64,000 bases of DNA from Oscillospiraceae bacterium (GTDB lineage: Bacteria; Bacillota; Clostridia; Oscillospirales; Acutalibacteraceae), in assembly GCA_031266365.1 (NCBI GenBank), contig JAISBE010000012.1:445-64444 (forward strand). Direction: 5' to 3'. Below the pieces are notes generated by a model. That model made no database searches. It was not told the origin of the DNA and worked only from the letters and a program-made list of their open reading frames with translations. Positions 8,059 through 30,051 of the stretch are shown piece after piece (the first letter of the stretch is position 1; each line of letters opens with the position of its first letter). The translations under genes and the position numbers were made by a program.

Positions 8059-8940
8059 TTATGCTTTTAATTCATACAATTCCAACAAACTTAAACTACA
8101 TAAAAATAAAATCTGTTCACGCAGCGTTAATTTGCGATTTTCATCTTTTTTTGACCATTTTTCTATGTTTCGTGCTGCTTTGACCGTGATTTTCTTCAAT
8201 ACATCTTTAGCTTCATCGGAAAGCCCCACAGTATAAATAGAGAAACGACCTTCTGTTTGAGGTTTTGGGTAATCATCTATCCCCATGCCGATCAAAAACC
8301 AATCTGCGTGATACTCACCTGCAGCAGACGACATTCCAGCATAATCGGCGATTAATTCGTCGTGCAAATTATTTTGAGAAGAACCCAAAAAACGCTTTGT
8401 AAAATAATGCGTACATTCATGTTCACGACGAATTATAAGCGAAAAATCTTTCCATTGCTCGTCTTCAAGCCCCAATTTTTGCGCAGGAATGTTGCTATAC
8501 GGCTTATTCGAAAGAATTATGAACCTCGTGGACTTTCCATTCGCAAAACTAGCACCTGTTTTCTCTATGCCTGGAAATTCCTTGCCTTTGTGTATTAATT
8601 TTATTACCAATTCCTCAAAATCTTTAGTATCCGTGGCATAAAATATTGGAATTGGGCCCGCTAAAGAATCATATATTTCTATTTTTACGCCTTCTGGTTT
8701 TTGAAGAACTATATCTTCTTCCCCATGAGATATATTATTGTTTAAAGCAGCCACTATGCCCTGATCTTTTACCTTTTCTATAAAGCTTTTCCAAGCTCCA
8801 ATAAACGGTTCCTCTGCGATTACTTCTGGAATTTGGGGATTTTTACCAAAGCGGTTAGCAGTATAATCAAGTAATTCCTGCAAAATTTCGCCCTTGGCTC
8901 CAATCGCTTCCAATAATTCGCTGCTCTTATCAATTGGCAT
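8059..8940 (-). CDS. hypothetical protein with HExxH motif (putative metallopeptidase-like), last gene of the GG-leader peptide operon
   Basis: 293-aa ORF containing REHECTHYF (H-E-C-T-H). It starts 18 nt downstream of the preceding peptide gene on the same strand. Confidence 0.5.
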   Translation of the reverse strand: MPIDKSSELLEAIGAKGEILQELLDYTANRFGKNPQIPEVIAEEPFIGAWKSFIEKVKDQGIVAALNNNISHGEEDIVLQKPEGVKIEIYDSLAGPIPIFYATDTKDFEELVIKLIHKGKEFPGIEKTGASFANGKSTRFIILSNKPYSNIPAQKLGLEDEQWKDFSLIIRREHECTHYFTKRFLGSSQNNLHDELIADYAGMSSAAGEYHADWFLIGMGIDDYPKPQTEGRFSIYTVGLSDEAKDVLKKITVKAARNIEKWSKKDENRKLTLREQILFLCSLSLLELYELKA

Positions 8941-12631: not shown

Positions 12632-12710
12632 CGCATTGCCCTCCCTATATTGCAAATTATCATATTTATATTCACGCGCATTATAATATAATTATTTAAG
12701 GACCATGGTT

Positions 12711-13460
12711 ATGTACATACGCACAGAAGGTCTCATAGTAATGGAACAGAATATAGGAGAAAAAGATAAACTCTTAACCATTTTGACAAAATGTGAAGGG
12801 CTAATCCGCGTATTTGCGCGCGGTGTGAAAAGCTTTCTCAATCGCAATGCCTCTGCAACGCAGCTTTTTTGCTATTCTGATTTAATATTATATAAAACTA
12901 AGGATAAATACGTTTTAACCGAAGCGAGTGCAAAAGTGCTATTTTTTGATCTCCGAAACGATATCGAAAAGCTCTCTTTGGCAGAATACTTTTGCGAATT
13001 AACCATCGCCTTAACGTCACATAATCACGAAATTGGCGACATTTTAAGCCTAATTTTAAACTCATTTCATTACCTGCAGACTGGAAAAATTTGCGCAAAT
13101 TTACTCAAACCTATTTTCGAAATAAAAATTCTATGTTTTTCCGGATATACGCCAAATCTTATTTGCTGCAAAGACTGTGCCGCCTACTGTGCATCGACAT
13201 TTTATTGGATTTTAAAAGAAGGCTCGATTTTTTGCGAAAATTGCTTTAAAAATCATTTTGCTCCAGGTTTGACGCTACACAGTGCTCCCTTAGCCGCCTT
13301 ACGCCACATTATTTACGCTGAGCCTAAAAAAACATTTTGGTTTGAACTTTCCTACGAAAGCAAAAAAGAACTAATTTACGCAGCAGAGCAGTATATTCTC
13401 TATTGCCTTGAAAAAGAGTTAAAAACGCTCGATTTTTACAATTTAATCGCTCAAAACTAA
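12711..13460 (+). CDS. recO: DNA repair protein RecO
   Basis: About 249 aa with an OB-fold-like N-terminus (MYIRTEGLIVMEQNIGEKDKLLTILT) and a C-terminal Cys cluster CCKDCAAYC...FCENC. The second ATG has the better RBS spacing. Confidence 0.82.
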   Translation: MYIRTEGLIVMEQNIGEKDKLLTILTKCEGLIRVFARGVKSFLNRNASATQLFCYSDLILYKTKDKYVLTEASAKVLFFDLRNDIEKLSLAEYFCELTIALTSHNHEIGDILSLILNSFHYLQTGKICANLLKPIFEIKILCFSGYTPNLICCKDCAAYCASTFYWILKEGSIFCENCFKNHFAPGLTLHSAPLAALRHIIYAEPKKTFWFELSYESKKELIYAAEQYILYCLEKELKTLDFYNLIAQN

Positions 13461-13821: not shown

Positions 13822-13850
13822 TTGACATCAAGAATAAATTATAGTAAAAT
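13822..13850 (+). promoter_or_regulatory. promoter candidate ahead of the cassette array
   Basis: TTGACA (13822-13827), 17-nt spacer, TAAAAT (13845-13850). Confidence 0.3.
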
Positions 13851-13915
13851 TAAATTAATATTTGATCAAATAGAAAACTATTATAATTTATAAAAACATG
13901 AAAGGAAGTATACCC

Positions 13916-14500
13916 ATGAACATTAATTTTCGTAAACTCAAAAACTCTTTATTAAGCCTCGGCTTAAGTGCTACCTTATTTTCTGCCTCCGGCCTAAAGA
14001 CGCTTGCTGAGCCGTTATCCCTGAGCTTTGTCAAGCAGCAGCTGAAGGACCTCCTCCCTGCCCCGACGGCGCCCCCTGATGAAATGGCGCGTGGTGTGCG
14101 TCTGCTACTAACGCGTGCGAGCCTATTTACACATGAGGGAGCCCAGCGGCAGGTTAAAGATGCCGATGGTCGAATCAGTAAGACGGAGGAGTGGGCTTCC
14201 GTTGTACGCTTGAATGCCGACACTTTCTACGTTAATACGCATAACTTAGCGAACGTGGCTGGAGTCGCGAAGTCTACGGTGAACGCGCGTCTGAAGGCAG
14301 CAAAAGTAATAAGAGTTTTTCTTACAGAGTCAGATATACGCTATGTGGAGGGGATAGTACCGACTCGCATCAGATCGAACTATTGGAGAAAAAGCACTCT
14401 AACGGCGGCTCCACCCATAGCGGCGCATGCACTGTTTCCCGACAAAGACTCTTCTGATGGCACAACTTGGGAGGAACAATTCGATTTAGCTGATGAATGA
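13916..14500 (+). CDS. cassette protein U1: Sec signal peptide plus GC-rich variable domain
   Basis: AAAGGAAG RBS 7 nt before the ATG. MNINFRKLKNSLLSLGLSATLFSASGLKTLA|EP. The upstream ATG is ACG or out of frame in sister cassettes, so the second ATG is used. Acidic aromatic tail TWEEQFDLADE. Confidence 0.7.
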   Translation: MNINFRKLKNSLLSLGLSATLFSASGLKTLAEPLSLSFVKQQLKDLLPAPTAPPDEMARGVRLLLTRASLFTHEGAQRQVKDADGRISKTEEWASVVRLNADTFYVNTHNLANVAGVAKSTVNARLKAAKVIRVFLTESDIRYVEGIVPTRIRSNYWRKSTLTAAPPIAAHALFPDKDSSDGTTWEEQFDLADE

Positions 14501-14521
14501 GCTGTGAGATGAAAACATCTT

Positions 14522-14542
14522 AATCGGGGGTACCCCCCGATT
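14522..14542 (+). repeat. cassette 3' palindrome (hairpin) after U1
   Basis: AATCGGGGGTACCCCCCGATT, a near-perfect inverted repeat. It is followed by the conserved CTTCACACCCCACCGCATTTAATTTAAATAAAAAATT. Confidence 0.75.
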
Positions 14543-14614
14543 CTTCACACCCCACCGCATTTAATTTAAATAAAAAATTAATATAATTTATAAAAACACG
14601 AAAGGAAGTTACCC

Positions 14615-15274
14615 ATGAACCTTAATTTTCGTAAACTTAAAAACTCCTTATTAAGCCTCGGCTTAAGCGCTACCTTATTTTGCACCGCCGGCCTGGCCGG
14701 AGTGCCCGCTTCAGCTAACGACCCGAACCCAGAGGCAACCAGTGCGTACCAACGGAAGGTAGTAACTATGCAGTACCGGAGCACAGCCGAGGGCGGAGAG
14801 TTTGCCAACCTGTCCGACTGGTTACACCAAGTCACAGACATGTCCACAGAGGCCAGAGAACAGGGAGCTGAGGTGGGCATATACTGGCAGGTCCGCGACC
14901 AGGTACTGTGCCTGAACTCGCAGATCCTGGCGGGCGATTTAGGTATTAAAGTTAACACGCTGAATAAACGACTGAAAGGGACATGCGGTCCGGCGCAGCC
15001 CTTAACGGTAGCACAAGTGAAAGAGATGGGGTACGCGAAACCAAGGAGCTGGTGCAAACGCGCTTTTTGGCCCAAGCGCACGACCCGCATGGTCGAGCCG
15101 CCGACGGCAGCGTGGATTCAAGGACCCGGGGCAAGCCTCGGCCGCCTGGCGACCGCCATCGCTGCCCCTGCACCGGCGCAACCGTTAGCCCCTCCGGTCT
15201 GTATCAGCCCTCAAATTGAAGATCATGATACGGACGGTTTGAATGACTGGGATCCTGACTTTGGATGGACTTGA
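14615..15274 (+). CDS. cassette protein U2
   Basis: MNLNFRKLKNSLLSLGLSATLFCTAGLAGVPASA|NDP. GC-rich body. Tail DWDPDFGWT. Closest paralogue is U3. Confidence 0.7.
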   Translation: MNLNFRKLKNSLLSLGLSATLFCTAGLAGVPASANDPNPEATSAYQRKVVTMQYRSTAEGGEFANLSDWLHQVTDMSTEAREQGAEVGIYWQVRDQVLCLNSQILAGDLGIKVNTLNKRLKGTCGPAQPLTVAQVKEMGYAKPRSWCKRAFWPKRTTRMVEPPTAAWIQGPGASLGRLATAIAAPAPAQPLAPPVCISPQIEDHDTDGLNDWDPDFGWT

Positions 15275-15288
15275 CCCTGAAAAATCTT

Positions 15289-15309
15289 AATCAAGGGTAC
15301 CCCCCGATT
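15289..15309 (+). repeat. cassette 3' palindrome after U2 (imperfect)
   Basis: AATCAAGGGTACCCCCCGATT, in the same position relative to the conserved tail. Confidence 0.65.
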
Positions 15310-15381
15310 CTTCACACCCCACCGCATTTAATTTAAATAAAAAATCATTATAATTTATAAAAACACGAAAGGAAGTTACCC

Positions 15382-16071
15382 ATGAACCTTAATTTTCGTA
15401 AACTTAAAAACTCCTTATTAAGCCTCGGCTTAAGTGCTACCTTATTTTGCACCGCCGGCCTGGCCGGCTTACCCGTTTTCGCTACCGACCCGAACCCAGA
15501 GGAAACCAGGGCGTACCGACAGACTGTAAAAGCTATGCTGTACCCGCGCACACCCACGGGCGTACAGTTTGACACCATGCAAGACTGGTTACACGGAGTA
15601 GCGGACGTGTCCACAGTGGCCAGAGCGCGTGGGGCTGTGGTGGGCATATTCTGGCGGGTCCCAGGTAGGGAATTGTGCCTAAACAAGCATATCATGGCGA
15701 GCGATTAAGGTCTTAAAGTTAACACGGTGGCGAAACGACTGAAACTGGTTAGATCCGGTCCGGCGCGTCGCTTACCGGTAGAACTCGCGATAATGCTGGG
15801 TGGCGCGAACCCAACGCACTGGTCCCGCCGCGCTTTCTGGCACGAGCCAAGACCCCCCGTGGGCGTGACACAAGCGGCAAACGGGGAAGCACTAGCCGAG
15901 GCGAGCCAAGGCCCGCTCGCGATACCACGAGCGGCCAATGCATCGGCAACAGCGTTAGCCCTTCCTGCCTCTACCAGCCCTGAAATTCAAAATTATGACT
16001 GGGATCTCGACGATACACCCTTTAGAGAGTACCCTGACCCGCATGACGACGCGGACGACTTTTGGCGCTGA
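15382..16071 (+). pseudogene. cassette U3, interrupted by one in-frame TAA (15706-15708)
   Basis: The two track ORFs (15382..15708 and 15727..16071) are in the same frame. U2 has GAT TTA GGT ATT AAA GTT AAC where U3 has GAT TAA GGT CTT AAA GTT AAC. Confidence 0.65.
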
Positions 16072-16167
16072 GCCGGGTCGGTCACGGCACCCTGGTGGAC
16101 TAACTGCGTAAGTGCCGGCAGCACGCCCAACCACCGGACTGGGATAAGCTTGAAAATGAAACATCGT

Positions 16168-16189
16168 AATCGGGGGTACCCCCACGATT
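16168..16189 (+). repeat. cassette 3' palindrome after U3
   Basis: AATCGGGGGTACCCCCACGATT. Confidence 0.7.
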
Positions 16190-16262
16190 CTTCACACCCC
16201 ACCGCATTTAATTTAAATAAAAAATTATTATAATTTATAAAAACATGAAAGGAAGTATACCC

Positions 16263-16982
16263 ATGAACATTAATTTTCGTAAACTCAAAAACTCTTTATT
16301 AAGCCTCGGCTTAAGCGCCACCTTATTTTGCACCGCCGGCCTGGCCGGCTTACCCGTTTTCGCTACCGACCCGATACGCGAAGTGGCCTTAAGGGAATGC
16401 GTTATCGGAATCGGAAGGGGGGCAATCAGGTACAGCCGCGGAAAGGCTAGGGCCGTATTTGTAGCTATTGTGAATCAACTAGTAAACCTTGCGTCAGTGG
16501 CTGCCAAGCGTGGAGTCATCGGTCCAGATGGACGGCCAGTGCCGCTACATTGCGTACTACCACTAATCCCGCTGGGACGCGGCGCATTCATGGTGCATAC
16601 ACAACTGCTAGCTGAGGTCGCGAAGGTAAGTAAATCTTCGGTTAACTCAAACTGGTGCGCAATAGGTTATAACAGCTCAACGCCGACTCCCGCGCAGATA
16701 GCACAACTAGAGATGCAACCACACCAGTGTCGGAGCTGGACGGTCCGCACGCTACGGACACCCGAATCTACCGGCGAACCGGAGGTCCACGCCGACGAGG
16801 CGCACACGGATGCTCCGACAAGCACACCAGGGGGATCCTTCGCGCAGGCTGACTGGCCGGAACTCTCGCTACCCGAGCAACCCGAGGGCTACGACCCATT
16901 AGCAGACACAGACACTGGGAGCGGCGAATACGGCTTTTTTGAACGTGACGTCGCTACCGAAGACCAAAGGTGGCTTTTTTGA
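16263..16982 (+). CDS. cassette protein U4
   Basis: MNINFRKLKNSLLSLGLSATLFCTAGLAGLPVFA|TDPIRE... Paralogue of U5. Contains ...SKSSVNSNWCAIGY...CRSWTVRTL. Confidence 0.7.
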   Translation: MNINFRKLKNSLLSLGLSATLFCTAGLAGLPVFATDPIREVALRECVIGIGRGAIRYSRGKARAVFVAIVNQLVNLASVAAKRGVIGPDGRPVPLHCVLPLIPLGRGAFMVHTQLLAEVAKVSKSSVNSNWCAIGYNSSTPTPAQIAQLEMQPHQCRSWTVRTLRTPESTGEPEVHADEAHTDAPTSTPGGSFAQADWPELSLPEQPEGYDPLADTDTGSGEYGFFERDVATEDQRWLF

Positions 16983-17065
16983 CCTTGCCGTCGCTCCCGA
17001 CGACCCTTGGCCTGTACTTAGTCCCAGTGGTTCAAAAGAACCCTTTTAAATGAAAAATTGTAATC

Positions 17066-17079
17066 GGGCGCTCTCGCCC
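17066..17079 (+). repeat. cassette 3' hairpin after U4 (different sequence, same position)
   Basis: GGGCG-CTCT-CGCCC followed by ATTTTTCACACCCAACCGCATTTAATTTAAAT. The stem sequence is replaced but pairing is preserved, and a T-run follows. Confidence 0.6.
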
Positions 17080-17155
17080 ATTTTTCACACCCAACCGCAT
17101 TTAATTTAAATAAAAAATTATTATAATTTACAAAAACATGAAAGGAAGTATACCC

Positions 17156-17884
17156 ATGAACCTTAATTTTTGTAAACTTAAAAGCTCCTTATTAAGCCTC
17201 GGCTTAAGTGCCACCTTATTTTGCTCCAGCCTGGCCTGCTTCCACGTTTCCGCTAACGACCCGATACGCGAAAAGGATTTAAGGGCACAACTTATCGAAC
17301 TCAAAAGAAAAGCCGCGCCAGTCAAGTATCAGCGCGGACGGGCTGGGGCCGTATTTGCAGCTCTTTGGAATGAACTACTAACAATTGCGAATGAGGCTGC
17401 CGCGAGTGGAGTCATAGATGAAGCCGGAAGGCCAGTGCCGCTGCATACCGTACTATCACTAATACGGCTGGGGCCGACAGCATTCGCAATGAACACACCC
17501 GCCCTAGCGAAGGACTTAGGGAGAAGTAAATCTTGTGTTAACAACCAGTTGTGGAAACTAGGTTATACCAGCTCTCCGCTGACTACCGAGCATATGGCAC
17601 AACTAGGGATGCGACCACACCAGTGTCGGAGCTGGACGGTCCGCACGCTCTGCCCACCCGAAAATACCGGCGAAGATGGGGGCTCTGCCGACGAGGCACT
17701 CACGAGTAATCCCCCAGAATCAACCGGCGACTCCTTCGCGCCCGCTGAATGGCCGAGACTATCGCTACCCGATCGACCCGCGGGCGCGGGCCGCTTGGCA
17801 CTCACAGACACTGGGCGAGGCGACGGTGGCTTTTTTGCCCTTGACCATGCTCCAGCCGGCGCCAGCTGGTTTGACCTTTACTGA
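17156..17884 (+). CDS. cassette protein U5
   Basis: MNLNFCKLKSSLLSLGLSATLFCSSLACFHVSA|NDPIRE... Contains LAKDLGRSKSCVNNQLWKLGY...CRSWTVRTL. Tail ASWFDLY. Confidence 0.7.
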   Translation: MNLNFCKLKSSLLSLGLSATLFCSSLACFHVSANDPIREKDLRAQLIELKRKAAPVKYQRGRAGAVFAALWNELLTIANEAAASGVIDEAGRPVPLHTVLSLIRLGPTAFAMNTPALAKDLGRSKSCVNNQLWKLGYTSSPLTTEHMAQLGMRPHQCRSWTVRTLCPPENTGEDGGSADEALTSNPPESTGDSFAPAEWPRLSLPDRPAGAGRLALTDTGRGDGGFFALDHAPAGASWFDLY

Positions 17885-17904
17885 GCTTAGGAATGAAAAA
17901 TCTT

Positions 17905-17925
17905 AGCCGAGGGTTACCCCCGATT
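17905..17925 (+). repeat. cassette 3' palindrome after U5 (degenerate)
   Basis: AGCCGAGGGTTACCCCCGATT followed by CCTCACACCCCACTGCATTTAATTTAAAT. Confidence 0.55.
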
Positions 17926-17997
17926 CCTCACACCCCACTGCATTTAATTTAAATAAAAAATCATTATAATTTATAAAAACACGAAAGGAAGTTACAC

Positions 17998-18603
17998 ATG
18001 AACCTTAATTTTCGTAAATTCAAAAGCTCTTTATTAAGCCTCGGCTTAAGCGCTACCGTATCTTTCGGCTTCGGCCTACCCGGCTTCCACGCTTTCGCCA
18101 TTGATCCAATACCGACCACGCGGGGCGCCTGGAGGGCCGCGTTGTTGAGCGTGAGGCGATACCACGAGCCGGGCAAGAGAGGCAACCACGCTGAAAAGGC
18201 CGATACCAAAGCGCGGTGGCTTAGGCTGGTGGCATTGGCGCCCGGGCCCGAAGGCAATGAAATACTTGGTGCGGACACAGGTGTCGTAGAGCTCGGTGAC
18301 GGGTTCATCCTAATAAACTCGCGACTAGTGGCAAAGAACTTGGGGCGAAGTAAATCGTGCGTCAACGGACTCCTGGCGGAGCTAACTTACGAAAGACAAC
18401 CGATAGCTGGTGAGCACAGGCAAGTGTTGCGCGGGCTCACGAAAAAACCTCGTGAGTGGTCTCTGCGCAAAATCAAGCCGCAAGGCGCGCAGGACGGGGG
18501 CCGAGCCACGACCCACTCGCCCGATACTAGACCTTTCAACCCTGATCAGGACGGCGCGCCTACATGGGATCCTGTCGATGACTGCGACTTTGATGAGATC
18601 TGA
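17998..18603 (+). CDS. cassette protein U6
   Basis: MNLNFRKFKSSLLSLGLSATVSFGFGLPGFHAFA|IDP... Contains LVAKNLGRSKSCVNGLLAELTY...PREWSLRKI. Tail WDPVDDCDFDEI. Confidence 0.7.
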   Translation: MNLNFRKFKSSLLSLGLSATVSFGFGLPGFHAFAIDPIPTTRGAWRAALLSVRRYHEPGKRGNHAEKADTKARWLRLVALAPGPEGNEILGADTGVVELGDGFILINSRLVAKNLGRSKSCVNGLLAELTYERQPIAGEHRQVLRGLTKKPREWSLRKIKPQGAQDGGRATTHSPDTRPFNPDQDGAPTWDPVDDCDFDEI

Positions 18604-18611
18604 ACAGTCTT

Positions 18612-18633
18612 AATCGGGGGTACCCCCACGATT
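18612..18633 (+). repeat. cassette 3' palindrome after U6
   Basis: AATCGGGGGTACCCCCACGATT followed by CTTCACACCCCACCGCATTTAATTTCAAC. Confidence 0.7.
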
Positions 18634-18705
18634 CTTCACACCCCACCGCATTTAATTTCAACAGAAAATTGTTATAATTTATAAAAAAATGAAAGGAAGT
18701 TACAC

Positions 18706-19860
18706 ATGAAACTTAATTTTCGTAAACTTAAAAACTCCTTATTAAGCCTCGGCTTAAGTGCTACCTTATTTTGCACCGCCGGCCTCGCCGGCTTACCCGT
18801 TTTCGCCGAGGGACCTGCCACAATGGATGAGTGGCGCGAAGCGATACTACGCATCCTGGCCGGGATGCCAGAGTACTCTGCGCGGGGGAAGGACGCAGAA
18901 GCCCGCACATCCACTCTGTTGCACAACCAACTGGCAGTGAGCCGACAAGCACTAGCAAACGGCGTGAAACCACCCCTGCAACCAGTGGAAGGGGGGTTCA
19001 CGATCCACTTGTCGGCATTCGCGAGATACACCGGCATTACCGAACGCCAAGTGGAAAGGCAGCTAGTACGCGGAGGGGCACACTTAGCCGGGCGTGGTGA
19101 TGGCTACTGGAGCTGGTACACACTAGTGTCGGTGGACGACGGTGCAGGTCGCGCGGAAGGCGACATAGTTGAAGCCACCGCCGTTCCTCCCATGGTTGAC
19201 GATCGTGGCCAATTGGAAGTCCAGGTAATAGAAAAATACAAGAAGCTGGAACCAAATTTAGCACTACGCAAGACCGCACGGGGAGAGAACCACCGTCAGT
19301 GGCTGAGAGATTTAATCACGATATCGGAAGAAACCCTCGAGCATGGACAGCCGGACCTAGCGACCGTCGTATTACTGGGCGACGGAACCTCCCTCGCTGT
19401 AAACGCGGGCGCGTTGAGGCGTTTGACTGGTATCTGCAAATCGGCGACGAATTACCGCTTACAAGCCGAGGGACTCCACAAACGCAGCTTAGCGGACGCC
19501 AGCGAGCTGGACGCACGCTTTGGGAGACCATTAGGTTTAGCGGACCGCCGGCACTGGGAAGTCTGGACACCCACCCCGCCCGCTGCGATCGACTATTCTG
19601 AAAAAGATAATCCCTGGTTAACCAGGGCCTTTACGGCCGCGAACTGGTCGCGCCGACCCGGGGAACAACCAGCCATCGCGAGAGGGACGGACGGCAAAAC
19701 CCTATGGGTACGGGTCGAGGAGCTCAGCCGAAAATTAGACACAACGGATCTTGACGTTATGAGGCACCTTGAAAACTTGGGGTACCGGCTCACGGGAACT
19801 AAACAGTGCCGGCTCGCCACAGGTGAAGAAGTGGCATTGACGATCTGGGCACAGCGTTAA
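18706..19860 (+). CDS. cassette protein U7 (largest, about three internal HTH-like repeats)
   Basis: MKLNFRKLKNSLLSLGLSATLFCTAGLAGLPVFA|EGP... 384 aa. Three segments of the form hydrophobic strand, helix, turn, helix: FTIHLSAFARYTGITERQVERQL, SLAVNAGALRRLTGICKSATNYRL and TLWVRVEELSRKLDTTDLDVMRHL. Confidence 0.7.
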   Translation: MKLNFRKLKNSLLSLGLSATLFCTAGLAGLPVFAEGPATMDEWREAILRILAGMPEYSARGKDAEARTSTLLHNQLAVSRQALANGVKPPLQPVEGGFTIHLSAFARYTGITERQVERQLVRGGAHLAGRGDGYWSWYTLVSVDDGAGRAEGDIVEATAVPPMVDDRGQLEVQVIEKYKKLEPNLALRKTARGENHRQWLRDLITISEETLEHGQPDLATVVLLGDGTSLAVNAGALRRLTGICKSATNYRLQAEGLHKRSLADASELDARFGRPLGLADRRHWEVWTPTPPAAIDYSEKDNPWLTRAFTAANWSRRPGEQPAIARGTDGKTLWVRVEELSRKLDTTDLDVMRHLENLGYRLTGTKQCRLATGEEVALTIWAQR

Positions 19861-19988
19861 GAACGAAGTTGCACCCCCCGACGACCGCCCCTGGAGCCAG
19901 CGGTGGTGCCTTGGACCCGGCAAATCAGCTTGGGTTCTTCGAACATCAAGACAACGGAAATTCTCAATGAGCCTTGGCATTAAAAAAT

Positions 19989-20014
19989 CTTACCCGGGGG
20001 TGCATCCTCCGATT
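19989..20014 (+). repeat. degenerate cassette 3' element after U7 (first of two)
   Basis: CTTACCCGGGGGTGCATCCTCCGATT followed by CTTAACATCCCACCACATTTAATTTAAG. Recognisably homologous to the tail block but decayed. Confidence 0.5.
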
Positions 20015-20097
20015 CTTAACATCCCACCACATTTAATTTAAGACGACCACACACACCTGGTACGGCGAGGCGCGTGAACGGTGAGATGAAATATCGA

Positions 20098-20118
20098 AAT
20101 CGAGGGTTACCCCCGATT
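20098..20118 (+). repeat. cassette 3' palindrome (second copy after U7, precedes the U8 head)
   Basis: AATCGAGGGTTACCCCCGATT followed by CTTCACGCCCCACCGCATTTAATTTAAATAAAAAATT. Confidence 0.65.
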
Positions 20119-20190
20119 CTTCACGCCCCACCGCATTTAATTTAAATAAAAAATTATTATAATTTACAAAAACATGAAAGGAAGTTACAT

Positions 20191-20952
20191 ATGAAACTTA
20201 ATTTTCGTAAACTCAAAAACTCCTTATTAAGCCTCGGCTTAAGCGCCACCTTATTTTGCAGCTCCGGCCTGGCCAGCTTACCCGTTTTTGCTGAACCTGT
20301 AGTACTATCTGCTCTCAATATGCGTCTAGACGAAAAGAAGAAGCACTGGAGCGACTTTGACGTGGATAGCATGGTGAACACTGAACTGACATATACAGAG
20401 GAGCTGTTAGCCCATGGGGCAGTTGATGAAAAAGGTATGTGGAGTCCCGGTGAAGGGCACCTCGCCGTCGTATACGTAGGTTCTGGAGTTGTCGCAATTA
20501 AGATACAGACGTTATCAAAAAGGGCGGACAGAGCTAAAAGTCGATTAAACAAGGTACTTGCTTCTGCAGGTTATACCCCTTTAACACCGACTGAGGGTCA
20601 CAAGCACATCCTAGCGTCACGACTAAAAGTAAACCCACATGACAGATCTTTAGTGTCCTGGTCGTTCCGAATCAAACCGGATCGCCGCGCGGACGCAGAC
20701 AGGGCATCTAGTGACGCTGAGGCTACGGATGACCCTGCATTACAATTCCCAAGATTAGCAGAGGAACCAGCAGATGCTATGATTTTTTCCAGAATGCAAG
20801 GCGAAGCTACACAGCACGTCTTGCAATTTGGCCAGGGTGATTTAAGGCCGCACCCGGCCAAATTTGTTGCACCAGCTTCTGAGGACCGGATTATTGTTAG
20901 ATGCAGTAAAGACAGGATCCCCGAATGCGCATGCTGCTATCGCGTTGACTGA
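20191..20952 (+). CDS. cassette protein U8 (terminal, less GC-rich, no conserved tail element)
   Basis: MKLNFRKLKNSLLSLGLSATLFCSSGLASLPVFA|EP... The body is visibly less GC-rich than U1-U7. The array ends without the palindrome block. Confidence 0.65.
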   Translation: MKLNFRKLKNSLLSLGLSATLFCSSGLASLPVFAEPVVLSALNMRLDEKKKHWSDFDVDSMVNTELTYTEELLAHGAVDEKGMWSPGEGHLAVVYVGSGVVAIKIQTLSKRADRAKSRLNKVLASAGYTPLTPTEGHKHILASRLKVNPHDRSLVSWSFRIKPDRRADADRASSDAEATDDPALQFPRLAEEPADAMIFSRMQGEATQHVLQFGQGDLRPHPAKFVAPASEDRIIVRCSKDRIPECACCYRVD

Positions 20953-21095
20953 TGTAAAGTTAAAATATACAGCTCCTTTGCTTTTTGATGCCACCTGAAT
21001 AATTATTATGTGATTTTCAAAATTTTAAGTTGCACGACCAGCCATAAGTATGACGGATTTTGCGAAGGTCGATATTATTAACTCACCTAGTCTTC

Positions 21096-21124
21096 TTGAT
21101 GTTTTTGCAAAAATATGTTATAAT
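21096..21124 (+). promoter_or_regulatory. promoter candidate for galU (extended -10)
   Basis: TTGATG (21096-21101), 17-nt spacer ending in TGT, TATAAT (21119-21124). Confidence 0.4.
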
Positions 21125-21159
21125 AATATATGTAAATCAAAATAATTTAGGAGAAATAA

Positions 21160-22029
21160 ATGCAGATCAAAAAAGCCGTCATACCCGCCGCCGGTCTTGG
21201 AACACGAGTTTTACCTGCAACAAAAGTCATGCCAAAAGAAATGCTCCCGATCGTGGACAAGCCTGCCATTCAATACATAGTAGAAGAAGCGGTGGCATCA
21301 GGAATCGAAGATATATTAATTATCACAAGTCGTGGCAAAGACTTGATAGAAGACCACTTTGATAAAACTCCAGAATTAGAAAGCCGCCTATATGGAACCC
21401 AAAAATATAAGCTTCATCAAGATATCCTCGATATTTCAAATCTTGCAAATATATATTTTCTTCGCCAAAAAGAAGCAAAAGGGTTGGGGCATGCCGTTTT
21501 ATGCGCGCGATCATTCGTGGGAAATGAGCCTTTCGCCGTTTTATATGGAGATGACGTAATCATTGGCGAAAAGCCCGTTACCAAGCAACTAATGGAAGTT
21601 TACGAAAAATTCGAGCGCGGTGTTTTAGGCGTTAAAAAGGTCTCCAGTGACGTTATTCAAAACTACAGTTCAATAAAAATAGACCCAATATATGACAATA
21701 TTTATAGTTGTACAGATATGATCGAAAAGCCCTCCAAAGATCAGGTCTTATCGCTCTATTCCATCTTGGGACGCTGCATACTTCCACCTGAGATATTTGA
21801 AGTATTAGAAAATACAAAGCCGGGCCGCGGTGACGAGATTCAATTAACCGATGCCATGTGCATTATAGCGCAAAGCACCGGTTTTATGGCAGTGGATTTT
21901 ATTGGCAAACGTTACGATATGGGAGATAAATTAGGCATAATGAAAGCTTCTGTTGAAACCGCTCTAACTCATCCAGAAATTGGAGAAAGCTTTAGAGGAT
22001 ATCTAAAGAAAGTTTGCATGAATTTATAA
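21160..22029 (+). CDS. galU: UTP--glucose-1-phosphate uridylyltransferase
   Basis: KAVIPAAGLGTRVLPATKVMPKEMLPIVDKPAIQYIVEEA, the canonical GalU N-terminus. 289 aa. Confidence 0.9.
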   Translation: MQIKKAVIPAAGLGTRVLPATKVMPKEMLPIVDKPAIQYIVEEAVASGIEDILIITSRGKDLIEDHFDKTPELESRLYGTQKYKLHQDILDISNLANIYFLRQKEAKGLGHAVLCARSFVGNEPFAVLYGDDVIIGEKPVTKQLMEVYEKFERGVLGVKKVSSDVIQNYSSIKIDPIYDNIYSCTDMIEKPSKDQVLSLYSILGRCILPPEIFEVLENTKPGRGDEIQLTDAMCIIAQSTGFMAVDFIGKRYDMGDKLGIMKASVETALTHPEIGESFRGYLKKVCMNL

Positions 22030-22112
22030 TCACCCATATAGCAAAATTGAGTATATAAATAAAAAGAAATTTAACTGCACAGCTGGGTTTGCTTGCAAAA
22101 GGAGGTAAATGC

Positions 22113-22271
22113 ATGCTCACCGATTGCATTATAGCCGCCATTGCAGTAGCATTCGTAGTTATCCCCATTTATAAAGGCATTATGCATAAAAATGAAAATA
22201 AATTTTGCAGAAATTGCAAATGCAGTAGCTGCGAATTTTGTACTATCTCAGATAATAAAAATAAACTTTGA
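22113..22271 (+). CDS. small Cys-rich membrane protein (FeoB-associated Cys-rich family-like)
   Basis: AAAGGAGG RBS, then MLTDCIIAAIAVAFVVIPIYKG (one TM helix), then CRNCKCSSCEFC. Confidence 0.4.
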   Translation: MLTDCIIAAIAVAFVVIPIYKGIMHKNENKFCRNCKCSSCEFCTISDNKNKL

Positions 22272-22301
22272 GAGTACATTTTGCCTTTTTCCAAGCTATT
22301 T

Positions 22302-22964
22302 TTATAAATAAACCTGCTTCGCAAAAACTGGAGGTCCAGAAAGCAGATACATCTGATCGGAAAGCAATTTTCCATGATATACATCATGTGTCACGATTAT
22401 AGTTATGATATTTTTTGCGTTTTCTTTAATTAATTTAACAATTTTTCTTTTTAAAGTTAAATCCAATCCCACAAACGGCTCATCCAACAGAAGAATATCT
22501 TTTGGAGAAGCCAGCGCTCGAGCGATAGAAACTAACTGCTGCATACCACCGCTTAGATTTTCAACTTTTTGATCACAATATTCGTTTAATCCCATTAATT
22601 TCAGCCATTTTTTCGCTTGTGATTTTTTGTAATCGTCACTTATGCTTTTCCAAATTTCTCGCATTGAAAATTTCTCTATTTGAGGATTTTTCCCTATTAC
22701 ACACGCGATATTTTTCTCTGCTGTTTCCGAAAGCAAAAGCCTTTTATCTTGAAAAACGCAAGAAATTCGCTTACCCTTAACTCCATCAATAGTTCCATAA
22801 TCTGGCATATAAATACCCATAATCAGATTTAGAATTGTAGTTTTTCCTATGCCAGAACGTCCATTTAAAAAAATTATTTTAGAATTTTCAAAGCATATTG
22901 AAAAATCAGCTAAGATTTTTTTTCCACCAAAAGCTTTCACAACATGATTTATATGAATCGCCAT
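22302..22964 (-). CDS. ABC transporter ATP-binding protein (NitT/TauT-type importer)
   Basis: Walker A GRSGIGKTT, signature LSGGMQQ, Walker B LLLDEP. Forms an operon with the permease and binding protein upstream. Confidence 0.85.
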   Translation of the reverse strand: MAIHINHVVKAFGGKKILADFSICFENSKIIFLNGRSGIGKTTILNLIMGIYMPDYGTIDGVKGKRISCVFQDKRLLLSETAEKNIACVIGKNPQIEKFSMREIWKSISDDYKKSQAKKWLKLMGLNEYCDQKVENLSGGMQQLVSIARALASPKDILLLDEPFVGLDLTLKRKIVKLIKENAKNIITIIVTHDVYHGKLLSDQMYLLSGPPVFAKQVYL

Positions 22965-23049
22965 TGAAATTTCTCCTATTTTTCCAAATAATCAAAAAAA
23001 TATTTAACATGGAAAAATTAAAAATACAGCTACTAAATTAATTTCCGTA

Positions 23050-23874
23050 TCAAGCATAATTTCTAAAAATTCCTTTTAATACGATTTTCTCTAAAATTGA
23101 GCTAAAAAAAGCGATAATTATAGTCCACGCAAACAGGTTTATTGTATTCAGATGAACCTGCGAAAAATATATTTCCATCCCTATTGAATTTCTGCTGTTA
23201 CTTATAACTTCCGCTGAAATGCCAGATTTCCAAGCAAGACCAATTCCACTCACACAAGACGAGAAAAAATGCGGTTTTATAGCGGGAAAGTAAATCATTT
23301 TCATTTTGTTCCAGCGACTAAAACGAAAAACTTTACTCATTTCAATCAGATTTGGCTCAACCGATGCCACTCCTTTTAAGATATTACTATATAATATTGG
23401 AAATGCGATCAAAAACGATATAAAAGATGGAATCCAAAAAGATGGAACCCAAATTAAAGCTAAAATAATAAAACAAGCTATTGGAGTCGTTTTGATTATG
23501 TGAATCAGTGGATTTAAAAAATATTTTATAAATTTAGATAAGTTTGTTACAAACGCAATTGTAATTGAAAATACGATTGCTAGAAAAAATCCACATAAAG
23601 TCCTCAAAGTAGATATAAAAATTTTGGGCCAAGCTGTGCAAGAGATAAAAATCAAGTCTATTATTTTACAAAACACAGAATAAGGATTTGCGATAATAAT
23701 ATCATTATTCACAGAAAGGTAAAATATTTGCCATAAAATAACCCAAATAATTAATAAAATCATCTGTTGGGCGAAATTCCACAATTTTGATTTGTATTTA
23801 TTATTAAGCTTTATTGAGTTTGTGAATTTTTTTTTAATTATTTTAAGCAACAAATTTACTGTAGAATTCTTCAT
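23050..23874 (-). CDS. ABC transporter permease (NitT/TauT family-like)
   Basis: 274-aa multi-TM ORF between the substrate-binding and ATPase genes. It overlaps the upstream gene end. Confidence 0.75.
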   Translation of the reverse strand: MKNSTVNLLLKIIKKKFTNSIKLNNKYKSKLWNFAQQMILLIIWVILWQIFYLSVNNDIIIANPYSVFCKIIDLIFISCTAWPKIFISTLRTLCGFFLAIVFSITIAFVTNLSKFIKYFLNPLIHIIKTTPIACFIILALIWVPSFWIPSFISFLIAFPILYSNILKGVASVEPNLIEMSKVFRFSRWNKMKMIYFPAIKPHFFSSCVSGIGLAWKSGISAEVISNSRNSIGMEIYFSQVHLNTINLFAWTIIIAFFSSILEKIVLKGIFRNYA

Positions 23875-24838
23875 CCGGCAAACTGCCCCCTACAGATTCA
23901 GGGTTTAAGCTGTGTAAAATCTGTAAAAATCCTTTCATGCTCTGTCTCACATTGAACAACGAATTTATACCGCATAAAGGAATTGCTTTAACGGCAATAT
24001 CTTTTTCCATGACGTTATATTTTTCACAAAGCAAAGCCGAAGCTTCTAAATCCTCATTTACAAATGAAAATGATTTTTCATAAAGCTTCAAAAATTTCTC
24101 CACTTCAGTGTCATTATTTATAAAGTCAACACTGGCGGTTAAACATCCCATAGGTGGCTCTGCTCCATTTATATCTTTCCATTCTTTGGTAATATTAACA
24201 GTCTTGCTTATAGAAGAATCTTTAAAAAGCACCTCTGTTGCGAATGGTTCCGGTAATAAAGCACAATCGCATTTCCCCGCTAACAACAACGAAGCAACCT
24301 GAGCATGACTTGATATATACTCAAGTTTTATATCAGAATCATTTAAGATATTGTGGTTTTGCAGTATATGTAAAAATATATATTCCGGAGCTGCGCCTTT
24401 TCCAGCCAAATAAAGAGTTTTGCCTTTAAAATCTTCAAGCGAATTTAAATTGCCATCTTTTGAAAGGATAAACAAGCTTCCCGATGCCCCTGACGCGATA
24501 ACTTTTATTTTACGTTGAGTTTTATGATATAAAATAGAAGCTAAATTTAACGGAATCGCTGCAGCATCTATTTCTTTTTTGATAATTTTACTGACTATCT
24601 CCTCAGGACTATTGTACATAGATATATGATAATTATATTTTCCTGCATCTTCCATGAGTTTTAGCATTGTTATTGCACTGGGACCACGTAAGCATGCGAT
24701 CTTTATTTTATTTAATTGTGTATTTTCAACATTTTTTTGACATGCTATTAAAATAAAAGATAATAAAATAGCAATCGTTAAAACTTTATATAAATTAATC
24801 CTCAACTTGCGGTTCAAAATCACATTGACAGTGTTCAT
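23843..24838 (-). CDS. ABC transporter substrate-binding lipoprotein (NMT1/SsuA-like)
   Basis: Start trimmed to MNTVNVILNRKLRINLYKVLTIAILLSFILIAC (lipobox LIAC). A TTG about 30 nt downstream is an alternative start. The family call is tentative. Confidence 0.65.
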   Translation of the reverse strand: MNTVNVILNRKLRINLYKVLTIAILLSFILIACQKNVENTQLNKIKIACLRGPSAITMLKLMEDAGKYNYHISMYNSPEEIVSKIIKKEIDAAAIPLNLASILYHKTQRKIKVIASGASGSLFILSKDGNLNSLEDFKGKTLYLAGKGAAPEYIFLHILQNHNILNDSDIKLEYISSHAQVASLLLAGKCDCALLPEPFATEVLFKDSSISKTVNITKEWKDINGAEPPMGCLTASVDFINNDTEVEKFLKLYEKSFSFVNEDLEASALLCEKYNVMEKDIAVKAIPLCGINSLFNVRQSMKGFLQILHSLNPESVGGSLPDEEFYSKFVA

Positions 24839-25238
24839 GAATACACCCACAATTTTTATCACAAATCGAATTAAAATCAAATTCCAAACCTTCACCGCAA
24901 TTTGGGCAATCAATTGGGCTTTTTAATAATACATCCTTGGAAAGACAAATAATTTTTTCGCAATTTGGACAAGGTATTTCGTAAAATGAATCAGAATTTT
25001 TTTCGCCTACGTCATTATCATCGTAATAGTCCTCTTCCAAAACACAGAGATTTTCATCTATTTCATCAACCTGATCCTTTAGATCACTATGACTTTGTTC
25101 TAGCTCAGAAACTTCCAAAGTTATGTCATCTAATAAATCGATTATCTCTTTTAAAACCTTATTTTCTGATTTTGTTTCGTCCAGCTGCAGCCCTTGAAAT
25201 AAACCTTTAATATAAGCCGATTTTTCAGTAACTGTCAT
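24795..25238 (-). CDS. acidic coiled-coil plus zinc-ribbon protein
   Basis: 147 aa with CPNC...CPNC plus a C-terminal Cys/His cluster CDKNCGCIHEHCQC. Very acidic central segment. Confidence 0.5.
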   Translation of the reverse strand: MTVTEKSAYIKGLFQGLQLDETKSENKVLKEIIDLLDDITLEVSELEQSHSDLKDQVDEIDENLCVLEEDYYDDNDVGEKNSDSFYEIPCPNCEKIICLSKDVLLKSPIDCPNCGEGLEFDFNSICDKNCGCIHEHCQCDFEPQVED

Positions 25239-25320
25239 ATCTTTTTATCTCCTCAATTATTTTTTTATAGAGCTGTCTTAAAAGCTAAGTAAATTCAAAA
25301 CCACGTTAAAATTTCTGTAC

Positions 25321-25878
25321 CTACGCTCGCTCCATATATTCACCGGTTCGTGTATCCACACGAATAACTTCATCTTGATCGATGAACAAAGGAACGCGAA
25401 TTTGTGCCCCCGTTTCCAATATTGCTGGTTTTGTTGCATTTGTGGCCGTATCACCTTTGAATCCTGGGTCGGTTTCTACTATTTTAAGCTCAACGAAAAA
25501 AGGAGGTTCCACACCAAAAACGTTACCTTTGTGAGACAAAACTTTACACTCCATATTTTCTTGCACAAATTTAAAATTATCGGATAAAACGTTTTTATTA
25601 ATCGGCAATTGCTCATATGTTTCGTTATCCATAAAATAATAGAGATTACCGTCATTGTAAAGATATTGCATGGTTTTGCGTTCCACATAGGCAGGCGGAT
25701 ATTTATCGTTGGGGTTAAAAGTTTTCTCGATAACACTACCCGTAATCACATTTTTTAATTTTGTCCTGACAAACGCCGCGCCTTTTCCTGGCTTAACGTG
25801 TTGAAATTCTATAATAGAAAAAACATTGCCATCCATCTCAAAAGTCACGCCATTTCTAAATTCACCTGCTGATATCAT
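25321..25878 (-). CDS. efp: elongation factor P
   Basis: [47 protein letters not shown]. 185 aa. Confidence 0.95.
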
Positions 25879-25905
25879 GTGATTTCCTCCTGAATTTCAC
25901 CCATA

Positions 25906-26994: not shown

Positions 26995-27092
26995 ATAATA
27001 CCCCCTATTTTTATGACACCAAATCGGCAATCACAGTTTTCGTGCTGTTTAAAATTCAAAAAACACATGCAAAACTGCTCTAAAAAAATAAA

Positions 27093-27269
27093 TTATTTAA
27101 ATTTACGCTTTCTAGCCGCTTCCGACTTTTTTTTACGTCTAACCGAAGGTTTTTCATAAGCTTCCCTTTTGCGGACTTCCGAAATAACTCCAGCCTTTGA
27201 ACACTGTTTTTTAAACCTTTTTAGCGCATTTTCAAGAGATTCATTATCTTTAATTCTAATTTCAGCCAT
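27093..27269 (-). CDS. rpsU: 30S ribosomal protein S21
   Basis: Not in the ORF track (58 aa). My own translation is [68 protein letters not shown] upstream. Confidence 0.88.
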
Positions 27270-29892: not shown

Positions 29893-30051
29893 ATTAAAAG
29901 CCCCTTATTATTTTTTTAATGAACTATTAAAATTTTTATATTATCACCTACAAGTAAAGTATACTAAAATATTGAAAATAACTTTAATTTCCCATTGTAT
30001 GTTAAGTGCCCATAGACAGTAAAGCGTCCATAAAGCAGCTAATTCGCAATT

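Follow-up and report, generated by a model that had tools for sequence, protein, structure and literature searches.

A tandem array between recO and galU

The window, that is, the whole stretch of 64,000 nucleotides that was analysed, belongs to a low-GC Oscillospiraceae MAG of the Acutalibacteraceae type (genome approximately 36% GC). The best named matches of its LeuRS are Acutalibacteraceae and Ruminococcaceae proteins, with 71–72% identity; the contig with the closest LeuRS relative (L003) has a different gene order and does not contain the island described here. Between recO (12705..13460, forward strand) and galU (21160..22029, forward strand) lies a GC-rich island of approximately 7 kb (13822..20955, forward strand; 50–57% GC), which was delimited by its composition profile, the repeat families D1–D3, and the per-gene GC content by codon position. 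Both flanking genes are native: recO (GC 0.36, GC3 0.36) matches NCBIfam TIGR00613 (E 3e-27) and its product is an exact match to RecO of an NCBI “Oscillospiraceae bacterium” MAG, and galU (Pfam NTP_transferase) encodes an exact match to MDR1253901.1, the GalU of an NCBI Oscillospiraceae bacterium MAG. The remainder of the window outside the island consists of ordinary bacterial genes. The recO–galU interval has no ORFs besides the units of the array, an Rfam search of the island gave no match, and the island borders have no integrase, transposase, or tRNA gene.

The island holds eight genes (U1–U8), all on the forward strand and each built of a common leader and a body of approximately 50–57% GC, in which an IBD-like domain is usually followed by an acidic/aromatic tail. 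U1 (13916..14500, with an alternative in-frame ATG at 13898) shares the leader core with the other units but not the c-region of the signal peptide; its body is IBD-like, with a GC3s of 0.50, and is followed by the tail TWEEQFDLADE. It scores 12.4 bits against PF10416, below the cut-off of 25, and has an E of 2.5e-30 against the family profile. U2 (14615..15274) comprises the putative signal peptide MNLNFRKLKNSLLSLGLSATLFCTAGLAGVPASA and an IBD-like domain, after which comes the tail DWDPDFGWT (profile E 8e-33). DNA alignment identified U3 (15382..16071) as a recent paralogue of U2 with one in-frame TAA at 15706–15708, where U2 has TTA, and an otherwise preserved frame. A frameshift in U3 is ruled out, the lesion being this TAA, which marks either a young pseudogene or else a polymorphism or an error of sequencing.

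Three units exceed the PF10416 cut-off: U4 (16263..16982, alternative ATG at 16245; 27.2 bits), its recent paralogue U5 (17156..17884, alternative ATG at 17138; 32.7 bits, the best of the array), and U6 (17998..18603, with the tail TWDPVDDCDFDEI; 27.5 bits). U7 (18706..19860) carries two aligned IBD-like repeats (approximately residues 36–135 and 190–300) behind one leader, and its PF10416 match (16.7 bits at residues 225–259) lies below the cut-off. A third repeat of U7, at approximately residues 320–384, is discernible by eye only, and no acidic tail follows. The next segment (19861..20100, forward strand) holds remnants of deleted units, recognized through repeat family D3, blastn of the spacer, and the sequence itself: a tail-like fragment (…LGFFEHQDNGNSQ, followed by a stop), an incomplete copy of the spacer between units (19998–20041), and a second 3′-end fragment. 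U8 (20191..20952) has the leader, an IBD-like body, and a differing C-terminus; its GC3s of 0.42 is the minimum of the array, and it scores 15.9 bits against PF10416 (below the cut-off) and an E of 1.4e-29 against the family profile.

The shared leader and the composition break

The leader of approximately 200 nt is common to all units and is 80–98% identical between them, with 93% identity in codons 1–22 and 80–94% in the upstream 105 nt (U2–U8); the bodies are approximately 45–55% identical. In U2, the leader module (14513..14716, forward strand) was defined by alignment of the units and consists of (i) a hairpin with a 9-bp stem at 14522–14542; (ii) the box CACACCCCACCGC, followed by an AT-rich, TATAAT promoter-like core; (iii) the ribosome-binding site GAAAGGAAG, followed by the ATG at 14615; and (iv) signal-peptide codons 1–34. 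Every unit has its own ribosome-binding site and promoter, and a hairpin with a 9-bp stem, in which one pair covaries, stands after each gene. The core promoter (−48 to −25) has merely 4–5% GC; by eye, it resembles the region upstream of the native galU. The leader is a recombination mosaic, the four-gamete test being violated by 106 of 171 site pairs, and the dS between leaders is only approximately 0.19.

Codons 1 to approximately 34 encode a putative Sec signal peptide, recognized by inspection, with the N-terminal stretch MNLNFRKLKN (net charge +3), a 19-residue uncharged stretch, and a predicted cleavage site between ASA and ND or between VFA and TDP. A lipoprotein leader was rejected, there being no lipobox and TLFC not fitting one. 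An integron cassette array was also rejected: no IntI integrase lies beside the units, each unit has its own promoter, unlike cassettes, and the 3′ ends carry only the 9-bp-stem hairpin where cassettes have attC sites. The exact leader DNA pattern had 0 matches in the GTDB species genomes and 0 in the JGI metagenome contigs, and the leader peptide (43 residues) yielded no candidates in an index of 5.8 billion proteins.

The original prediction placed a switch in composition and synonymous codon choice near codon 25 of U2, at the junction between the signal peptide and the mature domain. The switch is real and sharp, and the AT-rich leucine codons noted in the U2 head do include TTA as far as codon 21. 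Its position is different: the maximum-likelihood change point in total GC is nucleotide 41 of the coding sequence, at codon 13/14, in eight of eight units (14655 in U2), and the GC3 of U2 is 3/12 in codons 2–13 compared with 13/21 in codons 14–34. The break therefore falls inside the signal peptide, at the boundary of its n- and h-regions and approximately 21 codons before the cleavage site predicted at about codon 34/35. That the switch recurs at the equivalent point of every unit was borne out, but the eight heads (93% identical) all copy a single sequence, and the shared break therefore counts as a single observation. When a single head was tested, P was 0.036 for codons 2–13 being body-like and 0.0024 for codons 14–34 being native-like, and the log-likelihood ratio of codons 2–22 lay in the top 3.9% of body windows; this single-head evidence for the break is modest.

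The proposed tabulation of synonymous codon use in heads, bodies, and native genes revealed a clear difference. GC3 at synonymous codons was 0.30 in 40 native ORFs (0.22–0.38 per gene) and 0.55 across the eight bodies (0.42–0.63 per gene), with no overlap of the per-gene ranges (Fisher p 5e-83), and within the heads it was 0.37 in codons 2–22 and 0.74 in codons 23–34. At fourfold-degenerate third positions, the bodies are flat (A.26, C.27, G.30, T.18) and the native genes are T-rich (A.27, C.17, G.21, T.35). The native genes show no difference in GC3 between start and interior (0.305 vs 0.323).

Only approximately 100 nt are AT-rich, beginning at the promoter, including the ribosome-binding site, and ending with codon 13. 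GC-richness like that of the bodies is seen in signal-peptide codons 14–34, which encode the hydrophobic core and the cleavage region, and at the upstream end of the leader (−108 to −61), so that the leader as a whole is not clearly native. AT-rich gene starts are a general trend, and a gene can be expressed in a low-GC Firmicute only if its promoter and start are AT-rich; the break alone is therefore no proof of a chimera. The general trend was reportedly described by Gu et al. in 2010 and Bentele et al. in 2013. A different local mutational regime may also be the cause of the break. Separate histories of head and body, which had been proposed from the break, are partly supported, on broader evidence: the bodies belong to IBD, a family reported only from trichomonads, and are foreign in composition, the leaders are 80–98% identical beside mostly saturated bodies, and the leader has a mosaic structure; the codon break itself does not lie at the proposed junction.

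Fold, relatives, and divergence of the bodies

The bodies are divergent IBD winged-helix domains (PF10416) and are predicted to bind DNA. Besides U4, U5, and U6, which surpass the Pfam cut-off, U1, U7, and U8 score 12–17 bits, and U2 and U3 have no direct PF10416 match; the weak units are assigned to the same family by their profile matches (E 1e-25 to 1e-40), an assignment that is partly circular because the profile was built from these same units. An hhalign comparison of the window family with outside metagenomic IBD proteins gave a probability of 99.1% (E 4e-19). The U5 domain was modelled with AF2 at a pLDDT of 90.5, and the top Foldseek matches of the model in the PDB are 1pp7_U and 1pp8, the IBD of Trichomonas vaginalis IBP39, with a probability of 0.99–1.00, a TM of 0.44–0.57 over 132–137 columns, and an E of only 2e-3. 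IBP39 was missed when the PDB was searched by sequence alone with the IBD profile and came to light only in the fold search, and none of the units matched any of the NCBIfam bacterial families.

The IBD family has been reported only from trichomonad protists. A scan of 185,579 GTDB species genomes for the IBD motif with a narrow pattern found no relative, and there, as in metagenome contigs, the motif matched chance patterns only. Among 1.84 billion representative proteins, no bacterial relative was found, and the sole believable outside matches were small IBD proteins lacking a signal peptide. These proteins score 63–151 bits against the Pfam model, compared with 12–33 bits for the window units, and share an FC…KRxxxCG motif that is absent from the units; several of them carry an acidic W/F C-terminal tail like that of the units. 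Of the remaining matches, P0009, P0014, P0016, and P0020, the top hits of the exhaustive search, were rejected as translated tandem-repeat DNA, and P0015 and P0021 as generic helix-turn-helix repeat proteins. A word-index protein search with U5 retrieved only its own paralogues, and neither U5 nor P0001 could be traced to an encoding contig by exact look-up.

The four outside IBD proteins whose contigs were examined lie on contigs of 1.5–3 kb with 45–51% GC, and their genes have a GC3 of 0.44–0.58. The proposed comparison of body codon usage with candidate donors gave no match: these four nearest outside genes resemble the bodies in base composition only and not in codon preference (RSCU r = -0.23, n = 588 codons), and no donor was identified. 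By BLASTP, the window units are as near to outside IBD proteins as to each other. In a neighbour-joining tree with thin donor sampling, the window units formed their own long-branched group, not nested among the outside proteins, in 67% of 60 bootstraps.

Most unit lineages are saturated at synonymous sites (215 codons are identical, where chance alone predicts 207), and they nevertheless keep a GC3 of 0.42–0.63 rather than becoming AT-rich. The two recent pairs have dN/dS values of 0.87 (0.61–1.24; dS 0.45, dN 0.39) for U2–U3 and 1.15 (0.86–1.63) for U4–U5. A dN/dS near 1 is equally seen in decaying genes. Reading frames are intact in seven of the eight units, and a neutral simulation gave a chance of approximately 0.002 that both frames of one pair stay open.

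Origin of the array and known systems

The explanation that we favour, with a probability of about two in three for the whole, is that the recO–galU island is foreign to this genome and consists of protist-derived genes that have not yet reached bacterial composition and stand behind a common Sec leader, encoding secreted mimics of protist-host transcription factors; the likeness of the leaders would be kept by gene conversion or recent spread, and the bodies would evolve fast with their reading frames preserved. The bodies and the signal-peptide core and cleavage region would retain a foreign, GC-neutral composition, undecayed toward the AT-rich equilibrium of the bacterium, and the approximately 100 nt from promoter to codon 13 would owe their AT-richness to the requirements of a promoter and translation start in this bacterium. 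The codon-usage break would then arise because the bodies keep their foreign composition while the promoter and start must be AT-rich. The unit proteins would be exported by the Sec pathway into the protist host and may be small enough to reach its nucleus, where they could mimic or compete with factors that bind the initiator element, acting as “nucleomodulin” effectors in an arms race.

Within this explanation, we tentatively consider a more specific and rather doubtful form, in which the array is a capture site where diverged protist IBD paralogues of approximately 50% GC were taken up repeatedly and recently, each behind a standard promoter, ribosome-binding site, and Sec module. The saturated lineages are far from the bacterial GC3, so under a simple two-state model we infer that their time in this genome is at most approximately dS 0.2–0.3. 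Repeated capture is allowed by bodies that are saturated but undecayed together with leaders that differ by so small a dS. If true, it would be a bacterial way to turn transcription-factor genes of a protist host into secreted effectors.

An unlikely alternative source is a GC-richer bacterium or mobile element from which the whole island, leaders included, was transferred in one block, the family having diversified and its leaders having been homogenised there, and the AT-rich 100 nt serving only as promoter and start region; head and body would then lack separate origins in this genome. The conserved leader is indeed GC-rich outside −60 to +40, a GC3 of 0.42–0.63 in saturated lineages would follow easily from divergence in a GC-richer genome, 67% of bootstraps place the window units together, and the native-like codon usage of the head rests on approximately 12 codons (P 0.036). 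Such a donor, however, left no bacterial relative among the 1.84 billion representative proteins or in the narrow-pattern GTDB scan, the island borders carry no integrase, transposase, or tRNA gene, and the core promoter is as GC-poor as stated above and, by eye, like the native galU upstream region.

It is very improbable that the array has a single origin, in which a gene from any source duplicated in place, its first 13, AT-rich codons reflecting only selection for weak mRNA structure at the start and a Lys/Asn-rich n-region and its GC-rich bodies a local regime of mutation or selection. The location of the break at the n-/h-region boundary rather than a domain junction, the generality of AT-rich gene starts, and the frequent recombination of tandem arrays accord with such an origin, but it leaves a trichomonad-type domain in a bacterium unexplained, the native genes lack any corresponding start–interior difference, and no known process keeps 7 kb at a GC3 of 0.55 in a genome at 0.30. 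GC-biased gene conversion is an unlikely cause, as it predicts that the most-converted segment is GC-rich, and here that segment, the leader core, is the AT-rich one. A functionless array, either a decaying relic or an assembly artefact joining eukaryotic and bacterial reads, could account for the dN/dS near 1 in both recent pairs, the U3 stop codon, the deleted-unit remnants, and the fact that the Logan contig of a second assembler begins at 20231, within the U8 leader (k-mer assemblies break at such 200-nt repeats), but is similarly improbable given the seven intact frames and the neutral simulation for one pair alone, the alternation of AT-rich leaders and GC-rich bodies eight times in frame and each time with a ribosome-binding site, the bacterial genes on both sides of the island on a 67-kb contig, and the agreement of that Logan contig with 20231–30320 at zero mismatches.

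If our favoured explanation of protist-derived, secreted mimics is true, a secreted, fast-evolving copy of a protist initiator-binding domain would be a direct route to disturb transcription initiation in the host; the borrowed functions so far described in protist-dwelling bacteria are mostly those of signalling proteins. To judge from the literature examined, the units would be the first report of an IBD family from outside trichomonad protists. The array would also be a natural case of foreign eukaryotic coding sequence made expressible and exportable through a shared leader module, and would show the pace at which foreign composition decays, with synonymous saturation beside undecayed GC as a testable puzzle.

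The IBD family of T. vaginalis, with IBP39 (PF10416; PDB 1PP7, 1PP8), has the same fold and belongs to the same family, and it likewise includes small proteins with one IBD followed by a C-terminal region; by contrast, the window units are bacterially encoded and carry a putative N-terminal signal peptide. The vsp/vlp genes of Mycoplasma are tandem genes with divergent bodies, whose near-identical upstream region and leader are kept by recombination; they encode native lipoproteins with a lipobox and internal repeats, and they undergo phase variation. The window array is similar in its shared leader and divergent bodies and differs in having no lipobox or internal repeats and in bodies that are foreign in composition and probably in origin. 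The phytoplasma effectors SAP11 and SAP54, which come from intracellular monoderm bacteria and target transcription factors of the host, and bacterial “nucleomodulins” are small proteins with a cleavable Sec leader that are released directly into the host cytoplasm and act on host transcription. Effectors of the SAP11/SAP54 type form multigene, fast-evolving families and act by binding host factors rather than as copies of a DNA-binding domain of the host. By analogy, the window units, which are small, multigene, and fast-evolving with a putative Sec leader, may be effectors of this kind, although the window candidate appears to be a captured protist-type DNA-binding domain.

The closest published precedent comes from Clostridia that live as endosymbionts in parabasalids of the termite gut (Takahashi et al., ISME J 2023, PMC10579323). 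They carry 42 eukaryote-like genes, of which at least 20 encode signal peptides and at least 12 are most similar to genes of parabasalids; these genes, which include Myb-like transcription-factor-like proteins, were proposed to interfere with the protist host. IBD and PF10416 are absent from the main text and one supplement of that paper (PMC10579323), which describes neither a tandem array of units joined to a shared, homogenised leader nor any analysis of composition. The LeuRS of the window has no close named relative (best named matches at about 72% identity), and the window bacterium is probably a different lineage from those Clostridia. The window bacterium and that “Acutalibacteraceae” small-genome clade (PMC10579323) are alike in belonging to the same family-level group and in combining a low-GC genome with eukaryotic-type genes, approximately half of which in that clade carry Sec signal peptides.

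The GC-rich island and its genes

The composition profile revealed that GC content, ~36% on average over the window, is 46–57% at 14–21 kb, and this island is bounded by recO (12705–13460) and galU (21160–22029). RecO and GalU have exact matches in the NCBI MAG "Oscillospiraceae bacterium" and in a 67,469-nt JGI contig, LeuRS (27481–29892, minus strand) is 71–72% identical to MAG proteins of Acutalibacteraceae and Ruminococcaceae, and the window outside the island holds ordinary bacterial genes (tRNA ligases, PBP1A, aspartate kinase, ribosomal proteins, and ABC transporters). An independent Logan assembly of run SRR14710922 reproduces 20231–30320 with 0 mismatches; because its reads may be those behind the JGI assembly, this agreement tests the assembler and not the sample. 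Its contig begins at 20231, within the leader of the last unit (U8) and also at the composition change point of U8; the leader shared by the units interrupts the k-mer assembly. An ORF at 8059–8940 (minus strand) encodes a DUF7005 protein (Pfam, E = 4e-71) with no NCBIfam match and appears unrelated to the island.

The island contains eight genes (U1 to U8) in tandem, all on the plus strand, with a repeated module before or overlapping each start. Antisense to these units lie minus-strand ORFs of 111–170 residues (13888–14223, 14578–15090, 15348–15695, 17964–18365, 18672–19037, and 20157–20552), which we rejected as genes since they are an expected by-product of few stop codons in GC-rich sequence.

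The mature domains (bodies) of the units belong by sequence profile and fold to the IBD family, the winged-helix initiator-binding domain of Trichomonas IBP39 (PF10416). In Pfam, U4, U5, and U6 score over the gathering score and U1, U7, and U8 under it, U2 and U3 have no direct PF10416 match, and none of the eight units matches an NCBIfam family. We built a profile from the eight mature domains and searched 1.84 billion representative proteins with it. It returned the paralogues from the window itself at E 1e-25 to 1e-40 and, outside the window, only weak matches (E 3e-6 to 9e-4) to JGI metagenome proteins of 133–296 residues; repeat-translation artefacts and generic HTH-repeat proteins were set aside. 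When scanned with Pfam, 10/10 of these outside proteins proved to be strong, full-length IBD matches (63–151 bits), and profile–profile comparison linked the window family to the outside family with a probability of 99.1% (E = 4e-19, 103 columns). For the U5 domain modelled with AlphaFold2 (pLDDT 90.5), the best PDB fold matches are 1pp7 and 1pp8, the IBP39 IBD–DNA complexes.

Size and place of the codon-usage break

Compared with 40 long host ORFs outside the island, the bodies have a synonymous GC3 of 0.549 (0.42–0.63) versus 0.300 in the host (0.22–0.38 per gene; Fisher p = 5e-83). At fourfold third positions, the bodies show an almost even composition (A.26, C.27, G.30, T.18), whereas the host is T-rich (A.27, C.17, G.21, T.35). 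The synonymous-site difference is therefore real and large, as the original prediction of a synonymous-codon and composition switch within the ORF had held, and the composition of the bodies is foreign to this genome.

The break had been placed at about codon 25, at the junction of signal peptide and mature domain. By contrast, a likelihood scan that splits total GC into two segments finds the change point at CDS nucleotide 41 (codon 13/14), with the predicted cleavage site at about codon 34/35. In U2, GC3 is 3/12 in codons 2–13 and 13/21 in codons 14–34. The AT-rich stretch is confined to about −60 to +40, and the GC content of both the leader from −108 to −61 and signal-peptide codons 14–34 matches that of the bodies. 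As claimed, the switch has the same place in 8/8 units (nucleotide 41), but the eight heads are 93% identical and the shared break therefore counts as one observation. Statistics on this one head sequence are modest: P is 0.036 for body-like codons 2–13 and 0.0024 for host-like codons 14–34, and the codon log-likelihood ratio of codons 2–22 ranks within the top 3.9% among body windows, a value typical for host windows. The original interpretation holds in part: head and body differ in their history, but what the break marks is the promoter/start region and not a fusion point.

Leaders, bodies, and turnover of the array

Alignment of the eight leader modules revealed, in order, a hairpin (AATCGGGGGTACCCCCCGATT), a box (CACACCCCACCGC), a very AT-rich stretch with TATAAT, a ribosome-binding site (GAAAGGAAG), and an ATG followed by the peptide MNLNFRKLKNSLLSLGLSATLFCTAGLAGLPVFA. 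This leader is common to all units and bacterial in type. By inspection, its peptide appears to be built in three parts like a Sec signal peptide (net charge +3 over the first ten residues, an uncharged stretch of ~19 residues, and an end ASA|ND or VFA|TDP) and no lipobox. In U1, U4, and U5, a 1-nt insertion (AAGTATACCC versus AAGT-TACCC) brings an upstream ATG into frame and adds MKGSIP; these ATGs (13898, 16245, and 17138) overlap the ribosome-binding site, and translation more likely starts at the second ATG, which is conserved. Each stop codon is followed by a hairpin with a 9-bp stem (14522–14542 and equivalents), possibly a terminator or mRNA-end structure, though its plus strand lacks a clear T-run; the U5 stem differs (GGGCG…CGCCC) with pairing kept, a covariation in one pair only.

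Nucleotide identity between units is 80–94% in the upstream 105 nt (U2–U8), 88–98% in codons 1–22, mosaic in codons 23–34 (51–100%; U3 = U4, U7 94%), and ~45–55% in the bodies, except for two recent pairs (U4–U5, 72%; U2–U3, 84% in a full-length CDS alignment). The leaders are a recombination mosaic that swaps short tracts, because 106/171 pairs of the 19 informative sites fail the four-gamete test. The bodies evolve fast with their frames kept open: U4–U5 has dS 0.33, dN 0.38, and dN/dS 1.15 (95% CI 0.86–1.63), U2–U3 has dS 0.45, dN 0.39, and dN/dS 0.87 (95% CI 0.61–1.24), and in a neutral simulation with the observed difference count both frames stayed open with a probability of ~0.002. The dN/dS of about 1 together with open frames points to diversifying mixed with purifying selection, not decay alone. 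U3 carries one in-frame TAA (15706–15708; TTA in U2) in a frame otherwise continuous to 16071, a stop that reflects very recent pseudogene formation, polymorphism, or an error in sequencing.

The array both gains and loses members. The gap between U7 and U8 (19861–20100) holds remnants of at least two deleted units, namely a tail-like fragment (…LGFFEHQDNGNSQ*), a partial copy of the inter-unit spacer (19998–20041), and another 3′-end fragment. U7 (18706–19860) appears to be adjacent units fused in frame, with a single leader, two aligned IBD-like repeats, a possible third repeat by eye only, and no acidic tail; in the JGI annotation, a separate 222-residue protein (P0013) starts inside it.

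Origin and possible role of the bodies

The outside proteins begin at the domain itself, without a hydrophobic N-terminal extension, and in several the C-terminus is an acidic W/F tail (…EDWMEPWVQ, …GEEWTYLL, and …ENPWDLSFDF) that the tails of U1–U6 resemble (…TWEEQFDLADE, …DWDPDFGWT, and …TWDPVDDCDFDEI). These two features suggest that whole small IBD genes were acquired and their N-terminus was extended afterwards. The acidic W/F motif (e.g., DWDPDF, TWEEQFD, and ENPWDLSFDF), present at the C-termini of U1–U6 and of the protist-type outside proteins P0017, P0018, P0019, P0022, P0024, and P0030, might serve small IBD proteins as a conserved motif for interaction or activation. As for the proposed match of body codon usage to candidate donors, four of the closest outside genes (contigs of 1.5–3.2 kb, 45–51% GC; gene GC3 0.44–0.58) agree with the bodies in base composition but not in codon preferences (RSCU r = −0.23, 588 codons), and the actual donor was absent from the databases searched.

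The older unit lineages share 215 identical codons at identical aligned amino acids versus 207 expected by chance, and are therefore saturated at synonymous sites; the recent pairs share 49/55 and 57/68. All saturated lineages nevertheless stand at GC3 0.42–0.63, with host genes at 0.30. In a simple two-state model, that much synonymous change in this genome should have relaxed GC3 almost fully to the host value, and the time of the units in this genome would be about dS 0.2–0.3 or less, a limit similar to the divergence within the recent pairs and among the leaders (dS ~0.19). This conflict of saturation with undecayed composition deserves follow-up. The lineages may have diverged in a genome of ~50% GC and then reached this one by repeated capture from a protist, or may have come together, diversified beforehand as an array, from a different genome richer in GC. 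The window units group together in 67% of bootstraps of a neighbour-joining tree, and in BLASTP the outside IBD proteins (30–46 bits) are no farther from the units than the units from each other; both single and multiple acquisition are compatible with these results. A local process could instead hold the bodies GC-rich; GC-biased gene conversion fits this role poorly, since conversion is most frequent in the AT-rich core.

U4, U5, and U6 carry an SKS motif, (R)SKS(C/S)VN, as in one outside subgroup. The second repeat of U7 (19273–19605) has a CKS motif (GICKSATN), comparable to GKCKSSIN of another outside subgroup (P0027–P0030), and its best BLASTP matches are outside proteins (41 and 34 bits versus ≤21 bits for window units); this repeat weakly hints at more than one acquisition.

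The unit proteins would be exported by Sec at ~17–23 kDa after cleavage (U7 larger), would enter a protist host and reach its nucleus, and would there act on initiator-type promoter elements or their partners by binding or competition. This proposal draws on the known role of IBP39, reportedly described by Schumacher et al. 2003 (PDB 1PP7 and 1PP8), and on a published precedent in Clostridia. The choice, by a putative effector, of the initiator-binding domain of the host lineage deserves follow-up. In the precedent, endosymbiotic Clostridia of termite-gut parabasalids, from the same family-level group, have 42 eukaryote-like genes, of which at least 12 have parabasalid genes as nearest relatives and at least 20 encode signal peptides (PMC10579323); the main text and one supplement of that paper make no mention of IBD. 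Like the genes of these protist-associated Clostridia, the window units would be host-derived effector genes with signal peptides.
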